Assembly: GCA_900768435.1 (NCBI GenBank)
Contig: CAAGCW010000003.1
Coordinates: forward strand, 4,599 to 68,598
Origin: an uncultured Collinsella sp.
GTDB taxonomy: Bacteria > Actinomycetota > Coriobacteriia > Coriobacteriales > Coriobacteriaceae
Length of the DNA stretch: 64,000 nt
Direction: 5' to 3'
The position numbers and the translations under genes were made by a program. Each line of letters begins with the position of its first letter. Position 1 is the first letter of the stretch. Positions 4,465 through 60,700 of this stretch are shown here, piece by piece. The notes beneath the pieces are model-generated. The model had not been told where the DNA came from, did not search any database, and saw only the letters and a list, made by a program, of their open reading frames with translations.

Positions 4465-4614
4465 GAAACCCCCATTTCCGCTGACGGGGTACAAAAGCCC
4501 ACGTCACGCTTTGCTACAGTAAAGTTTGACCATGGTACCAGAAGAAATAGACCAGCTCGGTGAAAAACTCGACAAGTTGGGATGGAACGAGATTCGGCGC
4601 CCGCGACGCCACCC

Positions 4615-4941
4615 CTATATAAGGCTCAAGACGATATAGAGTACGATGCCCGAGACGCAGCACCACAGCATCGATTTTGTCTTGACCGCCACGACCACGA
4701 CGCCGGCGGCCGCAATCCAGGGAACCAAGGCAGGCCAGAGCCCCGCGTCGAACGCGCCGGGACTCACCAAGTCGTTGGCGACCAGCGCGGCAAAGGCAGC
4801 GGGCGGGATATAGCCCAGGGCCTCGGTAATACGGGGCGACAGGGTCCGCCCGCGCAAGGCGAACGCCGGCGCGATGCGAAAGAACGCGATAGCAGCCCAC
4901 GACGACAGCCACAGAACCAAGAACTCGTTAACGGGCATCGC
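4615..4941 (-). CDS. azlD: Branched-chain amino acid transport protein AzlD
   Basis: About 105 aa hydrophobic protein. Overlaps the azlC stop by 14 nt, the typical azlCD arrangement. Confidence 0.65.
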   Translation of the reverse strand, partial: AMPVNEFLVLWLSSWAAIAFFRIAPAFALRGRTLSPRITEALGYIPPAAFAALVANDLVSPGAFDAGLWPALVPWIAAAGVVVVAVKTKSMLWCCVSGIVLYIVLSLI

Positions 4942-50998: not shown

Positions 50999-52117
50999 CT
51001 ACAGACGCGAATCTGCTGCGCCGAGAAGTCTCGTCGTCTGGCAGAACTTGTCACACAGACGTTCCGGTTCGCCCTGGGGAATCTGAGTACGCTCGGTCTC
51101 AAAGGAGAGGCCGTACTCGCGTGCCGGAAGGAAATACTCGAAATAGCCGTTGGTGTAACCGCAAACTATTCCCTCGACCGGACATTCGCGCTTCATGCGA
51201 ATACCCAGGTCGCTGCCGAGCTCACTCGGGAACACAAAGAGATGCAGGCCGCCCAAACTGATGACGGCACACTTAAGCGTGAGCGAAAAGTCGTCATGGG
51301 CAACGGTGTGATAGAACGTCTGAGGCTCGATGCGGTCAAGAACGACCTCGCGATCGAGCTTGATCTGGGAAATCGCCTCGGCAAGACCGGTCGAAACACG
51401 CTCAACCTCGGGAATGCCGCGTCCCTGGCGAAAATTGCGGTCGCTACAGTCGCCAGCAGCACCGACGACCATGGCCGGATAGTAACCAAGACTCTGAGCG
51501 AGCTTTTTGCCGGTAAGACCGGCGAGTTCGCTCGTGAGCTCCGTGCAGTCGGGTCCGACACAGGCAGAATGCACCGCCCAGTTCACAAAGCCCGCAAACG
51601 ATTTGCCTTCGTCATCGAAGAACGACACCACGATAACCTCATTGTCGGCAAGCTCTCCGGGAATGATGCGGTTGTCGTAGAAACCGGTGATGACTTTTTT
51701 GCCCATGCGGCAGGTCGCAGGTCGCGCGTTGGCGCGGCACTCTTCGAAGCATTGACAGATGGTATCGAGGAACCAGCGATAGTAGTCCTCGTTGAATTTT
51801 CCCGTCCACCAGCTGCGATGGTAGGCGACGATCGAAGTGTGGTCGTGCGTCGCGGAGAGCAGAACGCAATCACGGTCGATTCCGTAGCGCTCGGCGAGCA
51901 TCGTCTTAACCTCCTCGGCCATGCTCTCCTCAAACTCGAGAACATCGGCGTTAAAGAGAAAAACTTCGCGGTCGTCCTGTTGGAAAAGAATCGCGTTGGC
52001 GAAGACGTCGTCATGGACGCCTGTCGCAGGCTCCAGACGGTTGGGGAGGTTACGGTATCCGATTAGATAGATGTCGCCTTGCGGGGTAATCTTGCGGCGT
52101 GCATGTCCGATATTCAT
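50999..52117 (-). CDS. Neutral/alkaline ceramidase-like N-terminal-domain hydrolase (uncharacterised bacterial family)
   Basis: GHARRKITPQGDIYLIGY...GVHDDVFANAILF...VLLSATHDHTS matches the ceramidase N-terminal pattern G.A..DITP..G..L.GY...GVHD...ARA...SATHTHSGP. ATGA-coupled to the upstream paralog. Confidence 0.5.
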   Translation of the reverse strand: MNIGHARRKITPQGDIYLIGYRNLPNRLEPATGVHDDVFANAILFQQDDREVFLFNADVLEFEESMAEEVKTMLAERYGIDRDCVLLSATHDHTSIVAYHRSWWTGKFNEDYYRWFLDTICQCFEECRANARPATCRMGKKVITGFYDNRIIPGELADNEVIVVSFFDDEGKSFAGFVNWAVHSACVGPDCTELTSELAGLTGKKLAQSLGYYPAMVVGAAGDCSDRNFRQGRGIPEVERVSTGLAEAISQIKLDREVVLDRIEPQTFYHTVAHDDFSLTLKCAVISLGGLHLFVFPSELGSDLGIRMKRECPVEGIVCGYTNGYFEYFLPAREYGLSFETERTQIPQGEPERLCDKFCQTTRLLGAADSRL

Positions 52118-53382
52118 GCAAGGTCTCCTTTTTGTCGCGCCGCGTTTAAAGCGGCAAGGATGGTTTGGAGGAGGCGCTCATGGGAACCGGCGGCAAAGCC
52201 GGAGTTCATGGCCTCATAGGTGATTTTCTCGTACGCATCGGGGGCCGGCAGATACTTCTGCCCTCCGTTGACAAGCGTGGCAAAGAGCACGGGGCAGAAT
52301 CGGGCGGCGCGCACGGCGGCGCCAAACGAGCTCGAAACCTCGGGCTGGATACCAACGAACTCGGCATTTCCCAGCCGAAGTAAATAGACCCTCGTACGCT
52401 GTTCGCCCGCCGCATGAAACTCATAAGTTCGATGCGGGGCCAATGAGCAGAAGTCGGCGCGCGTCTGGGCGGGCAAAAGGACGTCGACCGTGCGAGCATC
52501 GACGCCGATGGCATCGTCCTCACGCGCCGCACGGACGGCCTCAATCAACGCATCGCTCAGAACGCGACCCTGTCGATGCAGCATGCGATATCCACTCTCG
52601 TGAGCATCTAACGTTTGCTTCGCCCCGGTCGAATCAAACGCAACGGTCACGGCGCGCTCCGCCGGACTCTGATCCCCCGCGGCACCGGGCAGCAGCAACA
52701 CGACTCCGCCCAATTCGCGCTCGAGAGCCATGGCGGCAAAGCCAAAGAGGTCCCCGCTCACCACGCGCTTCCCTTGAGAATCGTGCGATCCGTCGAGCAC
52801 GGAAGACTGGACATCAGCCGTCGCAAGCATGGCAACGAGCCCGCCCTCGGCATCCCTCGCGACAAGTACGGGCATCGCGTGGTCGGCAAACCCCTTGGGG
52901 TCTACTCCCAGCCACCAGCCGGCCGGCGTCTCAATGTCGCGGTTAACGTTCACAGGACAGTGGCCCTCCGCCGAGGCGAGCGTGACAGAGCGAATGCCCG
53001 CAACCGCCTGCTCAACAGCCGCGCGTGTCGCGGCGATGAGCGCGGCACGATAGCGCTCATTTCGATCGCGGGCATCGGTGTCGGCCAGATGCCCAGGGGT
53101 GCGCACGTGAGGCGCAGAAAACGTGTGGGTCGGGACCACCCAAGAAAAGGCGCCGTCGCAATTGGAGACATCCTTGACAACCTCACGCAGATCGGCGAGT
53201 AGGGCCGGAGCGATCGAGGTAACCTCAAGTGAAAGGATGCAAGCGCGCCGCCCCATCCCTTCGACCACGAAGGCACGGACAAAGATTTCATGACGGAGTG
53301 CGTCGAAACCGTCGAACGGCAATACGTCCTCTAAGTTAATGGCCACCCGGGCGGCTCCGGCCTTCATCTCTCCCTTATCCAT
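52114..53382 (-). CDS. Paralogous ceramidase-like hydrolase
   Basis: AGAARVAINLED...VRAFVVE...VVPTHTFSAPH follows the same pattern. RBS aaggaggg. Confidence 0.45.
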   Translation of the reverse strand: MDKGEMKAGAARVAINLEDVLPFDGFDALRHEIFVRAFVVEGMGRRACILSLEVTSIAPALLADLREVVKDVSNCDGAFSWVVPTHTFSAPHVRTPGHLADTDARDRNERYRAALIAATRAAVEQAVAGIRSVTLASAEGHCPVNVNRDIETPAGWWLGVDPKGFADHAMPVLVARDAEGGLVAMLATADVQSSVLDGSHDSQGKRVVSGDLFGFAAMALERELGGVVLLLPGAAGDQSPAERAVTVAFDSTGAKQTLDAHESGYRMLHRQGRVLSDALIEAVRAAREDDAIGVDARTVDVLLPAQTRADFCSLAPHRTYEFHAAGEQRTRVYLLRLGNAEFVGIQPEVSSSFGAAVRAARFCPVLFATLVNGGQKYLPAPDAYEKITYEAMNSGFAAGSHERLLQTILAALNAARQKGDLA

Positions 53383-54443: not shown

Positions 54444-54670
54444 TGGTGGGGACCGCCTTTCATCTTGTCGAGAACATTCTAAAAAAGCGGACACACGGAC
54501 ATCAATTCCAGTTGAAGCACACTGTATTCCATTTTGGAATACAGTTTTCCGTTCACACGCGAACCCCACTCACCCAAACGATCGAGACGCCGACAACGCG
54601 AGCTTTAACAGAAAACGGGCGACCCGAATCTGTTACGGGCCGCCCGTTAAATGACAAACTATCTCTGTCG

Positions 54671-56191
54671 TTATGATTGACGGTAATGGTCAAAAAAGTC
54701 GGCGAGATCTTCGAGGGACTCTTTGAGCACTTCCATGCGCGGCAGGTACACGATACGGAAGTGGTCGGGCTCAGCCCAGTTAAAGCCGCCGCCGCGCGTG
54801 ATCAGGATCTTCTTCTCGTGCAGCAGGTCAAGGGCGAACTGCTCGTCATCGGTAATGTTGAACTTCTTCACATCCATCTTGGGGAAGATGTAGAACGCCG
54901 CACGGGGCTTGACCACCGAGATGCCGTCAATCTTGTTGAGCGCCTCATACACAAAGTTGCGCTGCTCGTAGACACGGCCGCCGGGGCGGATGTAGTCGTT
55001 GACGGACTGATGGCCACCGAGCGCCGTCTGAACGATCGACTGAGCCGGCACGTTGGAGCACAGGCGCATGTTGGAGAGCATGTTGATGCCCATGATGAAG
55101 TCGCTCATGCAGCGCTGGTTGCCCGAAAGCACCATCCAGCCAATACGATAGCCCGCGATCATGTGCGACTTGGACAGACCGCTAAAGGTAACGCAGGGTA
55201 GGTCGGGGGCGAGCGAGGCAATCGAGACGTGCTCGTAGCCGTCCATGCACAGGCGGTCGTAGATCTCATCGGCAAAGATCATCAGCTGATGCCTGCGTGC
55301 AACCTCGACGATGCCCTCGAGCACCTCGCGCGGATAGACGGAACCCGTGGGGTTGTTGGGGTTGATGATGACGAGGGCTTTGGTCGCGCTCGTGATCTTG
55401 GACTCCATATCCTCCAGGTCGGGATACCAATCCGCTTGCTCATCACACAAATAATGTACGGGATGACCGCCGGCAAGGGTTGCGCACGCCGTCCAGAGCG
55501 GATAGTCGGGGCTGGGGATCAGAATCTCGTCGCCATTGTCGAGCAGCGCGTTCATCGAAAGCTGAATGAGCTCGGATACGCCGTTGCCTGTGTAGATATG
55601 CTCCATCTGAACGTTGGGCAAGCCCTTGATCTGCGAATACTGCATGATCGCCTTGCGCGCGGAGAACAGGCCACGCGAGTTGGAATAGCCTTCGCAGTCG
55701 GGCAGCTGCTGGCGCATGTCCTTGATGACCTCATCGGGCGTGCGGAAACCGAAGGGCGCCGGGTTGCCGATATTGAGCTTGAGGATGCGCTCGCCCTCGT
55801 CCTCCATACGGGCGGCCTCGTCGACGACGGGACCGCGCACGTCATACAGGACGTTATCGAGCTTGGTGGATTTAGAAAAAGTACGCATGGTGGCGCTCCT
55901 TGCAATTTGAGCTGAGGGATGGGGTTCGGGCTTGGAATCGTTGCGGGGAGATGATTCCTCGCCTTGGTCGGCGTCACCGGCGAGCAGCCAGGTAACATCG
56001 ACCTCCAAAATACGGGCGAGCAGCTCTGCCACATCGCGCCGCGGAATCGTCTTGCCGCTCACATATTGGCTCATCTGACTCTTGCCGAATTTTTTACCGA
56101 GCATCTCCGATGCGCGGATTACGTCCGACTGGCGAACGTCGCGATCGGACATAGTCTGTCGCAGGCGATCGCTAAACGTCTCTTGGGCCAC
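54671..56191 (-). CDS. Fusion of an N-terminal XRE-type HTH domain to an AlaA-like glutamate-pyruvate aminotransferase
   Basis: Residues from about 115 onward align closely with E. coli AlaA (KLNIGNPAPFGF, SKSHMIAGYRIGW). The N-terminal 100 aa form an XRE HTH (LRQTMSDRDVRQSDV...VSGKTIPRRDVAELLARIL). GTG start with RBS aaggagg. A second RBS (gcaaggag) precedes an internal ATG at the canonical AlaA start (about 55890). Confidence 0.7.
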   Translation of the reverse strand: MAQETFSDRLRQTMSDRDVRQSDVIRASEMLGKKFGKSQMSQYVSGKTIPRRDVAELLARILEVDVTWLLAGDADQGEESSPRNDSKPEPHPSAQIARSATMRTFSKSTKLDNVLYDVRGPVVDEAARMEDEGERILKLNIGNPAPFGFRTPDEVIKDMRQQLPDCEGYSNSRGLFSARKAIMQYSQIKGLPNVQMEHIYTGNGVSELIQLSMNALLDNGDEILIPSPDYPLWTACATLAGGHPVHYLCDEQADWYPDLEDMESKITSATKALVIINPNNPTGSVYPREVLEGIVEVARRHQLMIFADEIYDRLCMDGYEHVSIASLAPDLPCVTFSGLSKSHMIAGYRIGWMVLSGNQRCMSDFIMGINMLSNMRLCSNVPAQSIVQTALGGHQSVNDYIRPGGRVYEQRNFVYEALNKIDGISVVKPRAAFYIFPKMDVKKFNITDDEQFALDLLHEKKILITRGGGFNWAEPDHFRIVYLPRMEVLKESLEDLADFFDHYRQS

Positions 56192-56203
56192 AGGAACCTC
56201 CTT

Positions 56204-56300
56204 GCTGGCAAAGTTCAATTTATAGAACACGAATTGAACCAGGGTTCAATTTAGCAAGCAGTATAGCGCGGCACCTCATTTGAAAGTTCAATTTCAAAAA
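56204..56300 (-). promoter_or_regulatory. Promoter/operator region: -10 TATACT plus four GTTCAATT-type repeats, including the palindrome GAATTGAACC-AGG-GTTCAATTT
   Basis: Motifs at 56211-56221, 56231-56252 and 56284-56294. The -10 on the minus strand lies at about 56262-56267. Confidence 0.4.
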
Positions 56301-56354: not shown

Positions 56355-57212
56355 TTAGAGGTATTCAATGAATCGAGCGGCGGCAAGTGAAACATCGGCC
56401 GTTCGATATATGGCGTTGATCTGCCGATGGGGATGTCCTTCGAGCGAACGAATGGCGACATTGAACTGGCAGCGGCGCAAGATGAGCGCCGGAAGGACGC
56501 TCACGCCCAGGCCGTCCTCGACCATGGCCATAATCGCATAGTCATCCCAGGTCGACAGCTTTGAGCGCACGGTCAGCCCCGCCCGACGGAACAGCGGCGT
56601 AATCTCGTCATCGGTGCCGCGTTCCAGCAGAATAAACTGCTCGTTGGCCAAATCGGCAAGAGAGACGACCTCTTCAGTGGCAAGCAAAGAGTCTGCCGGC
56701 ACTACCGCCATCAACTCGTCGCGCACCAAAGACCGCGACGTCATGCCATTTTCTCGGGGCTCATGCGGGATAAAGCCCAGATCGCAGCGGCCCTCTGCCA
56801 CCCATTGTTCAATCTCTGAATAGTCGCCCATCAGCAACTCGTAATCAATGTCTGGATAATCGGCACGAAAACGAGCAATCACCGGCGGCAGCACGTGGGT
56901 CGCCACGCTCGAAAACGTACCGATGCAGATTTTGCCGCGCATGAGCCCACGCATCTCATCCACGCGTCGCTGCAAGCGAACGAATTCCTCGCAGAGCGCC
57001 TCGACAGCCGGCATGACCTGCCGCCCGTCAGCAGAAAGAACCACACCCTCGCGACTGCGGTCGAGCACCTTAAAGCCCCAATCGGCCTCAAGATCGGCCA
57101 CCATGCGGCTCACGCCCGATTGCGAATAGCTCAGGCGCTCGGCGGCGCGCGTAAAGCTTCCGGCGCGCACTGTCTCGAGCAGCACCTGCATCTTTTGAAT
57201 ATTCGTTTCCAC
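56355..57212 (-). CDS. LysR-family transcriptional regulator
   Basis: LysR HTH (FTRAAERLSYSQSGVSRMV). GTG start preceded by ggagg. Divergent from the EamA gene. Confidence 0.7.
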   Translation of the reverse strand: METNIQKMQVLLETVRAGSFTRAAERLSYSQSGVSRMVADLEADWGFKVLDRSREGVVLSADGRQVMPAVEALCEEFVRLQRRVDEMRGLMRGKICIGTFSSVATHVLPPVIARFRADYPDIDYELLMGDYSEIEQWVAEGRCDLGFIPHEPRENGMTSRSLVRDELMAVVPADSLLATEEVVSLADLANEQFILLERGTDDEITPLFRRAGLTVRSKLSTWDDYAIMAMVEDGLGVSVLPALILRRCQFNVAIRSLEGHPHRQINAIYRTADVSLAAARFIEYL

Positions 57213-57330
57213 GGCAGTCCTCCATCCTTGCATGAGCTTTTGTCATGTCTGCCATGCATTATATTCGCTTTTCTTCTAAAGCCAGTTCACCCATAGTGAA
57301 GATGCTCGGATATAGAGGGGATGTCAGCGC

Positions 57331-58242
57331 ATGAACAACGGACTGTTTACGTACTTAGCAGCATTGCTATTGTTTGGCTCCAACGGCATCATCGCCGCTG
57401 CCATCGCGCTGCCGAGCTCCGATATCGTGCTACTACGCACGTTTTTGGGCGCACTCTCGCTTGTCACCATCCTCGCCATCACCCAACGCCATAAGTTGCA
57501 GGCGCCATCTCGCCCCCGCGAAGCCGCAGCCCTCCTCCTCTCGGGAGCCGCGCTGGGCGCCAGCTGGATTTTTCTATTCCGCGCCTACCAGACGATCGGC
57601 GTCGGCGTATCCTCGCTGCTGTACTACTGCGGCCCCATCATTGTCATGGCGCTCTCCCCGCTCATCTTTGGCGAAAAGCTGACCGGTGGCAAAATCGCCG
57701 GCTTCATCGCCGTTGCTTGCGGTGCTTTTCTCATTGCAGCGCAAGGTCTAGGCGGCAATATGCCCATTGCTGGTATCGCTTGCGGAATCGCCTCGGCATT
57801 TTGCTATGCGCTGATGGTCATCGCTAGCAAGGGTGCGCCACACATCGAAGGCCTCGAAAACTCCACGCTCCAGGTGAGCGCCGGCTTTGTGACCGCACTG
57901 GTCCTCACGCTCATCACGCAGGGCGTCCCCTCATTCCTGTCCGCCGGCGTCGCCGCCGGTATTGATTGGCGCGCCGTCGTCATGCTCGGCGTCGTCAACA
58001 CCGGCATCGGTTGCCTGCTCTACTTTAGTGCCGTCGCCAAACTGCCCGTCCAGACCGTCGCGGTTGTCGGCTACCTCGAGCCGCTTTCGGCCGTCGTGTT
58101 CTCCGCCGTCCTTTTAGGCGAAGCCATAACACCGGTCCGCCTGATGGGCGCCGCACTTATCATCGGCGGTGCGATCTTTTGCGAACTCGCCGGTAAGCGC
58201 GCAAGCGCCAAGGCCGGTATCGCCCAGGCAGTACGTGCCTAA
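57331..58242 (+). CDS. DMT/EamA-family transporter
   Basis: Ten TM helices with duplicated EamA halves. Confidence 0.7.
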   Translation: MNNGLFTYLAALLLFGSNGIIAAAIALPSSDIVLLRTFLGALSLVTILAITQRHKLQAPSRPREAAALLLSGAALGASWIFLFRAYQTIGVGVSSLLYYCGPIIVMALSPLIFGEKLTGGKIAGFIAVACGAFLIAAQGLGGNMPIAGIACGIASAFCYALMVIASKGAPHIEGLENSTLQVSAGFVTALVLTLITQGVPSFLSAGVAAGIDWRAVVMLGVVNTGIGCLLYFSAVAKLPVQTVAVVGYLEPLSAVVFSAVLLGEAITPVRLMGAALIIGGAIFCELAGKRASAKAGIAQAVRA

Positions 58243-58450: not shown

Positions 58451-60700
58451 ATGTCCAAGGGAGTCCACGTGGCACACAACAAGCTGGAGGCAAGCCTCCA
58501 AGACCAGCATAGTCAGGGCGGGCATGGCGCCATCCCCCTCTCCGCTGGCATGTTGCTCGTAACGCTCGGCGTCGTCTACGGCGACATCGGCACGAGCCCC
58601 ATGTACACCATGAAGTCAATCGTCGCCAACAACGGCGGCATCGGAACCGTCAGCGAGGACATGATCCTGGGCGCGCTTTCACTCGTTATCTGGACCATGA
58701 CGCTCGTGACCACGGTCAAGTACGTGCTGATCGCCATGAAGGCCGATAACCATAACGAAGGCGGCATCTTCGCCCTGTTCAGCCTCGTACGCAAGGTGGC
58801 ACCATGGCTGATTCTACCCGCCATGATCGGCGGCGCGGCGCTGCTCGCCGACGGCATCCTCACCCCCGCCGTCACGGTTACCACGGCCATCGAGGGCTTG
58901 CGCACCATCGAGTGGGGCCATGCGCTTTTGGGTGACGGCCAGACCAACGTCATCATCATCACCATCATCATTATCTGCGGCCTATTTGCCATGCAGCGCG
59001 CCGGTACCTCGTCAATCGGCAAGCTGTTCGGCCCGCTCATGACGCTGTGGTTCCTGTTCCTGGCAGGCGCCGGTCTGTTCAACATGCTCGGCAACCTGTC
59101 CATCTTGCGCGCGCTCAACCCCATCCGCGGCATTATGTTCCTGTTCTCGCCCATCAACCACTCGGGCATCATGGTGCTCGGCTTTGTCTTCCTGTCGACA
59201 ACCGGTGCCGAGGCGCTCTACTCGGACATGGGTCATGTGGGCAAGGCCAACATCTATGCATCCTGGCCGTTTGTTAAGGCGGCCCTTATCCTCAACTATC
59301 TAGGTCAGGGAGCCTGGCTGCTCGCCAATAACTCCAACCCCCAAATGCTCGCGATGGATATCGTCAACCCGTTCTACATGATGCTTCCCGAGCCCCTGCG
59401 CCCCTTTGCCATCGTGCTTTCGGCCGTGGCGGCCATCATCGCCTCGCAGGCGCTCATCACCGGCTCGTTCTCGCTGGTATCCGAGGCAACCCGTCTCAAT
59501 CTCATGCCGCACCTGCGCATCCACTACCCCAGCGACACCAAGGGTCAGCTCTATATTCCGCTCGTCAACAACATCATGTGGGTCGGCTGCATCTTCATTG
59601 TGCTGCTGTTCCAGAACTCCGAGCGCATGGAAAGCGCCTATGGCCTCGCCATCACCGTGACCATGCTCATGACCACGACGCTTTTGACGAGCTATATCGC
59701 CGGCATTCTCAAGCACAAGCTGGGCGCCTGCATCTTCGCCCTGCTTTTCGGTGCCATTGAGCTGTGCTTCTTCGCCTCGTGCCTTACCATGTTCTTTGAC
59801 GGCGGCTATGTGATGATCTTCCTGGCCTCGCTGCTGTTTGGCCTTATGTACGTGTGGCGCCGCGGCACCGCCATCGAGCGCACGCAAACGATCCTGCTGC
59901 CCGTCTCCAAGTACATCGATCAGCTCAACCGCCTGCGCAACGACGAAACCTACCCCGTGCTCGCCGACAATCTGGTGTTCCTCACCAACAGCCCCGATCC
60001 GCTCACGCTCGACCGCGACGTGCTCTATTCCATCCTGGACAAGCATCCCAAGCGCGCCAAGGCATACTGGTTCATCAACGTGCACGTTACCGACGAGCCC
60101 TATACGCACGAGTATTCCGTTGAGACCTTTGGCACGGACTTCTTGTTCCGCGTGCGCTTGGACCTGGGCTTTAAGGTCAACCAGCGCGTTAACGCCTACC
60201 TGCGCCAGATTGTTGGCGACCTGATGGCATCGGGCGAGCTGCCGCCACAGCACCACACCTACTCCATCTACGAGACGCGCGGAAACGTGGGCGACTTCCG
60301 TTTTTGCATGCTGCGCAAGATGCTTGCCCCCGAAACGGACATCAACCGCAACGACCACCGCGTGATGGCCATCAAGTACGCCGTCCGCCGCGCCTGCGGA
60401 AGCCCGGCACGTTGGTATGGTCTCGAGAACTCGGCCATCATCATCGAGTACGTGCCGCTGTTTGCCCGCATGCGCCCAGCCGTTAAGCTCGTGCGCACCC
60501 AGGTGCCGCTCGAGGTTCAGATCGAAGAGGCCGAAGAAATGGAAGTCGACATCTTCTCGGACGACTTGGTCAACGGCAACGAGGCCGGTAGGGACATGAA
60601 CGTCGATCCCACTGAGCTGCTCGAGAGCGTCGCAGATACGCCCGAACAGCAACAGCTCGACGGCCTCGAGAGCGAACAACTCAACGACGCCAACTTCTAG
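58451..60700 (+). CDS. kup: KUP/HAK/KT-family potassium uptake transporter
   Basis: Signature GVVYGDIGTSPMY, 12 TM helices and a long cytoplasmic C-terminal domain. Confidence 0.85.
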   Translation: MSKGVHVAHNKLEASLQDQHSQGGHGAIPLSAGMLLVTLGVVYGDIGTSPMYTMKSIVANNGGIGTVSEDMILGALSLVIWTMTLVTTVKYVLIAMKADNHNEGGIFALFSLVRKVAPWLILPAMIGGAALLADGILTPAVTVTTAIEGLRTIEWGHALLGDGQTNVIIITIIIICGLFAMQRAGTSSIGKLFGPLMTLWFLFLAGAGLFNMLGNLSILRALNPIRGIMFLFSPINHSGIMVLGFVFLSTTGAEALYSDMGHVGKANIYASWPFVKAALILNYLGQGAWLLANNSNPQMLAMDIVNPFYMMLPEPLRPFAIVLSAVAAIIASQALITGSFSLVSEATRLNLMPHLRIHYPSDTKGQLYIPLVNNIMWVGCIFIVLLFQNSERMESAYGLAITVTMLMTTTLLTSYIAGILKHKLGACIFALLFGAIELCFFASCLTMFFDGGYVMIFLASLLFGLMYVWRRGTAIERTQTILLPVSKYIDQLNRLRNDETYPVLADNLVFLTNSPDPLTLDRDVLYSILDKHPKRAKAYWFINVHVTDEPYTHEYSVETFGTDFLFRVRLDLGFKVNQRVNAYLRQIVGDLMASGELPPQHHTYSIYETRGNVGDFRFCMLRKMLAPETDINRNDHRVMAIKYAVRRACGSPARWYGLENSAIIIEYVPLFARMRPAVKLVRTQVPLEVQIEEAEEMEVDIFSDDLVNGNEAGRDMNVDPTELLESVADTPEQQQLDGLESEQLNDANF

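Follow-up and report, generated by a model that had tools for sequence, protein, structure and literature searches.

How should a gene be read in which a DNA-binding domain of the phage-repressor type and an apparently complete metabolic enzyme share one open reading frame (ORF)? This question is raised by a stretch of 64,000 nucleotides (hereafter the window) from contig CAAGCW010000003.1 of an uncultured Collinsella sp., the source being a Collinsella of the aerofaciens group. On the minus strand of the window an ORF joins a helix-turn-helix (HTH) domain of the XRE family, placed at the N-terminus, to an aminotransferase (AT) of the AlaA type. A preliminary description of this DNA had drawn attention to the fusion, to a possible internal translation start and to repeated half-sites in the promoter region. 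The analysis reported here indicates that the fusion is genuine and widespread, and that it is a reasonably likely candidate for a negatively autoregulated enzyme-repressor made as two isoforms.

Architecture, selection and spread of the fusion gene

The full-length coding sequence occupies positions 54671..56191 of the minus strand and comprises 506 codons and a stop, in agreement with the 507 counted earlier. It encodes, in this order, an XRE/CI-type HTH of about 70 residues, a disordered linker of about 30 residues and a complete AlaA. An ORF listing gives as the longest reading 54671..56230, which begins at a GTG further upstream, but the GTG at 56191 is supported as the biological start by comparison with relatives. 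It is the conserved start, with GTG or ATG at the equivalent position in other Collinsella, and the sequence upstream of it diverges among them like non-coding DNA. Besides, a Shine-Dalgarno (SD) sequence, AAGGAGG (56197..56203, minus strand), lies 5 nt before this GTG and is nearly invariant among the 52 different upstream sequences compared in Collinsella.

The AlaA-type class I aminotransferase module is encoded at 54671..55888 (minus). Pfam Aminotran_1_2 (PF00155) matches residues 136-485 with an E value of 1.7e-54 and 185.8 bits against a gathering cutoff of 19.7, and in a search against solved structures the best relative is AlaA from E. coli (4cvq, E 1e-165). Residues 102-505 of the fusion protein align with residues 1-404 of AlaA at 58% identity over 404 residues with zero gaps, M102 corresponding to M1 of the E. 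coli enzyme. The active-site set N280, D308, Y311, K341, R349 and R479, equivalent to N179, D207, Y210, K240 (the pyridoxal phosphate (PLP) lysine), R248 and R378 in AlaA, is invariant in 51 relatives; the codon of K341 lies at 55169-55171. The AlaA-type identity proposed for this part is therefore upheld, and the conservation of its catalytic residues suggests that the fusion protein is very probably an active alanine (glutamate-pyruvate) aminotransferase. In an NCBIfam scan of the fusion protein every model fell short of its own cutoff, including the equivalog for alanine aminotransferase (NF006230/PRK08363), which scored 342 bits under a cutoff of 534.

The HTH domain comprises residues 1-72 (55976..56191, minus) and contains the invariant motif GKSQxSQYxSGK..PR. 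A profile built from 20 relatives matches the N-terminal domain of CI, the repressor of the Lactococcus phage TP901-1 (3zhm, 5a7l, 6tri), with an E value of 7e-15, whereas the 434 repressor is a weak match far behind it. By this homology, the XRE domain recognised in the preliminary description can be narrowed specifically to the TP901-1 CI type. Many relatives carry precomputed matches to PF01381, PF13560 or PF12844. AlphaFold2 (AF2) predicts five helices in residues 6-70, with a predicted local distance difference test score (pLDDT) of about 80-93 for the block; the full-length model has a mean pLDDT of 59 and a poor AT domain, owing to a shallow alignment of close relatives, and was used solely for the confidence of the HTH and the linker. 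The linker, residues 73-101 (55889..55975, minus), is variable and probably disordered (pLDDT <50 at residues 74-100), and its length ranges among relatives from about 16 to 127 residues.

A scan with an HTH profile, using one genome per species, found the HTH signature in at least 592 genomes. The 80 best loci are of a near-identical Collinsella type (two of them under other bin names), with HTH identities of 96-99%. The 506-aa ORF is intact in 79 of the 80 and runs off the contig in the remaining one, so that the fusion cannot be put down to a frameshift or a faulty assembly; the broken versions in L083 and L085 resemble assembly frameshifts. The ratio of non-synonymous to synonymous polymorphism (pN/pS), calculated relative to the window, is 0.077 in the HTH, 0.44 in the linker and 0.016 in the AT module. 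These values argue for purifying selection on each of the two folded parts and for a relaxed linker. Related to this, pS within Collinsella is 0.091 in the HTH-coding part (55976-56191) and 0.207 in the AT-coding part (54671-55888), and the low value of the former hints at an extra constraint at the nucleotide level near the 5' end.

The taxonomic breadth of the fusion was established by exact look-ups and by a metagenome scan using a Firmicutes-first profile. Fused homologues of 500-600 aa, 73-98% identical to the window protein, are present in Collinsella, Enorma, Olsenella and Thermophilibacter. Complete fusions of 498, 526 and 532 aa, 65-71% identical to it, are found on human-gut Firmicutes contigs, and the source names of the Lachnospiraceae-type contigs include [Ruminococcus] and Coprococcus comes. 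Searching with only the first 101 aa gave chiefly short pieces at the ends of contigs, of use solely in pointing to Firmicutes relatives. Single 90% clusters of the fused protein contain up to 14,636 members, named in the databases only as 'aminotransferase class I/II-fold PLP-dependent enzyme' or 'alanine-synthesizing transaminase'. The design is thus widespread and unannotated as such. The architecture regarded earlier as unusual is confirmed and extends to other genera and a second phylum, but its supposed rarity does not hold, the fusion being common in gut Coriobacteriia and Lachnospiraceae.

Two further homologues deserve a brief mention. A search of representative libraries, in which the family merges at 50% identity and many matches are fragmentary, added only P0427, a protein of 516 aa in which a clearly different XRE HTH (…LSAQQLADAMTAAGVKVSRGAISNWERG…) is joined to an AlaA about 52% identical to that of the window; XRE-AlaA fusions may accordingly have arisen more than once or diverged deeply. 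In the near-identical homologue P0001 (610 aa) the beginning of the AT is partly duplicated in an internal stretch of about 100 aa; only one contig encodes this protein, and faulty assembly may be the cause.

Promoter half-sites and the internal start

The octamers AATTGAAC/GTTCAATT occur four times in an 82-bp promoter segment, at 56213-20, 56232-39, 56244-51 and 56286-93, and nowhere else in the window, for which about 1.0 copy would be expected over both strands. The four half-sites reported previously are hence all the copies that the window contains. In the direction of transcription, half-site 1 (GAAATTGAACTT, 56286..56293, minus) is followed after 20 nt by the probable -10 hexamer TATACT (56260..56265, minus). 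The palindrome formed by half-sites 2 and 3 (56232..56251) comes next, and then half-site 4 (AAATTGAACTTT, 56213..56220, minus), directly upstream of the SD. The palindrome had been correctly placed between TATACT and the ribosome-binding site, but instead of the form with a 3-nt spacer given for it, AATTGAAC-N4-GTTCAATT is the better description, alternatively read as 9-nt arms with 2 nt between them.

Comparison of the 52 Collinsella upstream regions reveals four conserved blocks, GAAATTGAACTT, TATACTGCT, AAATTGAAC-N4-GTTCAATTCGT and TATAAATTGAACTTTGCCAGCAAGGAGG, with a few single-base changes at most, and free sequence between them. TATACTGCT, which includes the -10, is invariant in every one of these regions (TATACT is also present in L081, L167, L170 and L113). 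The arms of the palindrome are likewise invariant across Collinsella, whereas its N4 spacer takes at least nine forms (CCTG, CTTG, TTAG, TCAG, TCTG, CATG, TACG and others), and half-site 4 is identical in all but one of the distinct sequences.

The motif is not restricted to this genus. In every lineage with readable upstream DNA, 13 lineages of two phyla, the fusion gene is preceded by three to six copies of AAATTGAAC(T)TT, roughly within 130-170 nt. Besides Collinsella, these lineages include Olsenella uli, Enorma, four more Coriobacteriia and five Firmicutes. Over 170 loci (878 kb), 473 motif copies fall in the interval -200..0 and 40 elsewhere, an enrichment of more than 100-fold in both phyla, the loci being non-independent. 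The half-sites are therefore phylogenetically footprinted and accompany the fusion gene across lineages. The layout is common to the lineages: one site coincides with the -35 position or immediately precedes it, a -10 (TATACT/TATAAT) comes next, and one to three sites then stand before the SD. A site stands at about -20 to -35 in most other lineages, the nearest copy being further upstream in the L113/L114 and L172 types. In L113 and L114 the leader between the last operator and the SD is longer and holds a short hairpin (GGGGTCTGATCCCC) about 70 nt upstream of the start. A helical phasing of the half-sites was considered and rejected: in the window the sites are 31 and 42 nt apart and look phased, but those of other lineages do not. 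One Firmicutes lineage has an additional AAATTGAACTTT right behind the stop codon of the fusion (L120, ~3999; L134, ~3996), where it may act on the downstream neighbour.

The half-site tested for TP901-1 CI is AGTTCAYR, its operator OL being AGTTCATGAAACGTGAACT, and a C-to-G change in the core abolishes binding by the CI homologue of the Staphylococcus phage phi13 (PMC8516035, PMC4941734, PMC7250872). The complement of the fusion-gene motif is AAGTTCAATTT, which contains the same AGTTCA core. In CI, the N-terminal domains are monomeric, are held on a flexible linker and bind a half-site weakly, the C-terminal dimeriser adding affinity (PMC4941734). The fusion protein thus resembles CI of TP901-1 and phi13 in its homologous HTH, in the AGTTCA core and in having a flexible linker followed by a C-terminal dimeriser. 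The class I aminotransferase fold is an obligate dimer, and the 4cvq entry has two chains; in the fusion this fold would supply the CI-like dimerising role. On the other hand, the C-terminal partner in CI is a helical-hook oligomerisation domain whereas that of the fusion is a metabolic enzyme, and the fusion gene is a chromosomal, housekeeping gene whereas CI belongs to a phage switch. On the strength of the shared core and the homologous domain, the fused HTH is quite likely to bind the promoter half-sites.

The second conserved element lies at the border between the linker and the enzyme. An internal SD, AAGGAG (55896..55901, minus), is placed 7 nt upstream of an internal ATG (55886..55888, minus), the codon of M102, so that both elements are present at the canonical AlaA start, as had been described. 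Initiation there could give a 405-aa isoform that lacks the HTH. In all lineages examined but one, an SD (AAGGAG, GGGAG or CAGGAGG) precedes an ATG or GTG by 6-9 nt. The codons that carry it differ: (A)AGGAG is read as Arg-Ser in Collinsella, L170, L168 and O. uli, GGGAG as Gly-Ser in Enorma and GGGGGAG as Gly-Gly in L167, while in Firmicutes CAGGAG(G) is encoded as Thr-Gly-Asp, Pro-Gly-Gly or Thr-Gly-Gly. The mean SD/anti-SD energy at the internal site is -8.8 kcal/mol, against -2.2 over all codon positions, and within every gene the site is among the highest 0-10% of the codon positions. Methionine occupies the internal position in 251 of 359 fused proteins and lies within 8 residues of it in 84 more. 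Two variant forms were read at the nucleotide level, L172 (without Met) and L114 (with Met two codons upstream), and both have a GTG at the canonical position, 7 nt after AGGAGG.

The maintenance of the SD through different codons, in a linker otherwise free to vary, argues for selection on the nucleotides themselves. The exceptional lineage points in the same direction: in L171:1501-3057 (P0009, 82% identical to the window protein) Arg replaces Met and the SD has gone with it, the fused ORF and the upstream AAATTGAAC sites being retained. Conservation of the internal start at the nucleotide level across lineages was therefore confirmed but its universality was not, one lineage having lost both elements. 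The internal start is probably used, and most lineages probably produce the 405-aa AlaA, equal in length to that of E. coli. A different arrangement is seen on the low-GC contig L086 (1066-2633), with operators upstream: a 133-aa HTH ORF ends in a TAA that overlaps the ATG of alaA (ATAATG), the two frames being different. Either the fusion exists here naturally as two translationally coupled genes, or a double frameshift may be the reason.

A self-repressing enzyme and the alternatives

These elements can be combined into a reading to which we give somewhat better than even weight, that of a negatively autoregulated enzyme-repressor made as two isoforms. The AlaA module would dimerise, and each dimer would present two TP901-1-CI-type HTHs on flexible linkers of about 30 residues. 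The targets of the HTHs would be the AAATTGAAC (complement AGTTCAATTT) half-sites around and after the -10 of their own promoter, and the probable effect would be repression of the gene's own transcription. The conserved internal SD and the start at AlaA Met1 would also yield the 405-aa HTH-less enzyme. Long/long dimers would then be bivalent repressors, long/short heterodimers, with one HTH, would be monovalent and bind weakly, and short/short dimers would be pure enzyme, so that the isoform ratio could tune repression. A broader proposal can be put forward tentatively, namely that in abundant bacteria of the human gut an enzyme of central metabolism is its own CI-type repressor, that the ratio of repressor to enzyme is set by alternative initiation, and that alaA transcription is in turn influenced by translation conditions and perhaps also by the state of alanine, pyruvate or PLP, the whole module being kept or exchanged across Coriobacteriia and Lachnospiraceae. 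That DNA binding itself responds to substrate or PLP seems rather doubtful.

Several observations weigh against autoregulation by a two-isoform repressor, in whole or in part. DNA binding, repression and the two isoforms are each inferred. On the single window sequence the Pfam matches to the HTH (aa 6-69) both remain below the gathering cutoff (HTH_31, 24.1 vs 27; HTH_3, 18.7 vs 23). The half-sites are arranged as TTGAAC-N4-GTTCAA in the fusion gene and as AGTTCA-N7-TGAACT in CI, and the arrangement differs also among lineages, with direct and inverted repeats and with N4 in Collinsella against N13 in O. uli; tethering by a long linker would explain such differences in orientation and spacing. 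The same long, poorly conserved linker argues against a tight allosteric coupling between the active site and the HTH. A scan for sigma-70 consensus promoters called none of canonical type for the fusion gene, because there is no TTGACA-like -35 at 16-18 nt from TATACT, and the positions of the sites relative to the transcription start are for this reason inferred. Counted by hand from the printed sequences, the distal TTGAAC of Firmicutes/Lachnospiraceae lies exactly 17 nt from the -10, against 20 nt in Collinsella, and in Firmicutes it may double as the -35 or simply be the -35 box. Finally, the absence of the internal start from at least one lineage (L171) means that it is non-essential and that the long form alone can suffice.

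Among the other explanations, one holds that HTH-AlaA mainly regulates other genes, for instance in alanine or nitrogen metabolism or in transport, with AlaA as the sensor and autoregulation as a side feature. An N-terminal DNA-binding domain, a linker and a fold-type I AT dimer are indeed the layout of the MocR regulators (PMC5320631), and the single extra motif copies past the stop codon in L120 and L134 would fit such a role. However, the AT module shares 58% of its residues with a true AlaA, keeps its catalytic set and is under very strong purifying selection, and the gene neighbours differ between genera. Moreover, no further motif clusters were found in the 64-kb window or in the 878 kb of flanks (whole genomes being unscanned), and a wider regulon as the main role appears unlikely. 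A different kind of explanation places the function in RNA: the repeats would form a hairpin, AAAUUGAAC-N4-GUUCAAUU, in the 5' untranslated region (UTR) and affect stability or translation, or would bind an unrelated factor, the HTH being otherwise employed or vestigial. Being placed after the probable -10, the palindrome would be part of the transcript, invariant arms with a free loop also suit a hairpin, and the minimum-free-energy fold includes it. Nevertheless, the 5'-UTR fold is no more stable than shuffled sequences (z -1.41), one copy stands upstream of the -10, and L083, L086 and L113 have only direct repeats, which cannot pair. Besides, purifying selection acts on the HTH, and AGTTCA is also the core bound by its closest homologue of solved structure, all of which leaves this explanation very improbable.

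It could also be argued that one product alone matters, either because the internal SD and ATG are an unused relic of an ancestral HTH-alaA operon or because most of the enzyme comes from the internal start, with the long form as a minor regulator. The fusion and operators kept in L171 in spite of its loss of the internal start, and the split-like L086 with its TAA overlapping ATG, are consistent with this idea, to which the maintenance of the SD in a freely varying linker (pN/pS 0.44), in two phyla and by means of different codons, is opposed, as are the exchanges of ATG and GTG with preserved SD spacing. A single relevant product is thus improbable, and the autoregulated gene with two isoforms remains the preferred reading.

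Genomic surroundings and relation to known systems

Just past the stop codon, the fusion gene is followed by an intrinsic terminator (54605..54648, minus) with a 13-bp GC-rich stem, a 9-nt loop and a UUUUCUGUU tail. Its RNA fold has an energy of -29.6 kcal/mol (z -4.44), and none of 200 shuffled sequences was equally stable. It was missed by the pattern scan because its loop exceeds 8 nt, and was recovered by folding. The possession of its own terminator suggests that the fusion gene is probably monocistronic.

Upstream, the fusion gene has a LysR regulator as its neighbour, and downstream an Amidohydro_2 protein. The LysR-type gene (56355-57233, minus) adjoins the fusion gene and is divergent from an EamA-family transporter gene (57331-58242, plus), after which a Kup potassium transporter is encoded (58451-60700); this LysR/EamA/Kup neighbourhood is not conserved in other genera. 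Two minus-strand ORFs, 50999-52117 (372 aa) and 52114-53382 (422 aa), overlap by 4 nt. The downstream one matches the Pfam N-terminal domain of neutral/alkaline ceramidases (E 2.8e-11), and the upstream one has no Pfam match. In several Collinsella genomes the fusion gene is closely followed, on its downstream side, by a segment of about 130 nt bounded by inverted repeats (GCCGCATT..CGCCAA / TTGGCGCAAATGCGGC) and with one GTTCAATT inside; its orientation in L003 (~4530-4660), L047 and L067 is opposite to that in L005, L010, L017 and L043 (~4590-4720). The stretch of the window that was read downstream of the gene showed no such segment.

Compared with systems already described, the fusion resembles the MocR regulators (GabR, PdxR, TauR) in having an N-terminal DNA-binding domain, a flexible linker and a dimeric class I aminotransferase fold. 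The operators of MocR proteins consist of repeated half-sites near the regulated promoter, as in the fusion gene (PMC5320631). However, the window protein has no Pfam match to the GntR HTH (PF00392), its N-terminus being of the XRE/CI type, and this, together with the true AlaA homology, places it outside the MocR family, in line with the distinction drawn in the preliminary description. The PF00155 match corresponds to the C-terminal fold-type I domain of MocR, but in the fusion this part is an AlaA orthologue-like enzyme: MocR proteins have an aminotransferase-like sensory domain (PMC5320631), whereas the fusion has a near-canonical AlaA with all catalytic residues. A conserved internal start able to yield the free enzyme is another difference from MocR. 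BzdR comes close in a different way, since it also links an XRE-family HTH to an enzyme fold, in its case a shikimate-kinase-like domain, and has been considered as an example of how an enzyme may become a regulator (PMC3602430). It is, nevertheless, a regulator derived from an enzyme of another family, whereas the AlaA of the fusion appears, from its residues, to be fully catalytic. The E. coli AlaA (YfbQ) of 4cvq, a glutamate-pyruvate aminotransferase of 405 aa, is colinear with this module and has neither the N-terminal HTH nor the linker.

Trigger enzymes such as PutA, BirA and NadR combine an active enzyme with a DNA-binding domain and repress their own or their pathway's genes, and coupling between catalysis and DNA binding has been demonstrated in them. 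As a concept the fusion would fit this class, and purifying selection acts on both of its modules, which are intact. Neither its folds nor its DNA-binding domain are related to those of these proteins, and in the fusion the coupling is only putative. We know of no PutA, BirA or NadR with a conserved internal start for an HTH-less isoform. No description of an XRE-AlaA fusion was found in the full-text literature, whose coverage was incomplete, so this is absence of evidence only.

Alanine aminotransferase connects pyruvate with the amino-acid pools, and to our knowledge its regulation in gut anaerobes such as Collinsella and Lachnospiraceae has not been described. The fusion offers a compact and testable model of an enzyme that would have gained a phage-type repressor domain and yet stayed an enzyme, intermediate between plain enzymes and the MocR regulators with their aminotransferase-like sensory domain. 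Its well-defined operator and the possible titration between two isoforms make it directly accessible to experiment. Thousands of database entries labelled only as 'aminotransferase class I/II' are, by the same reasoning, probably transcription factors too.

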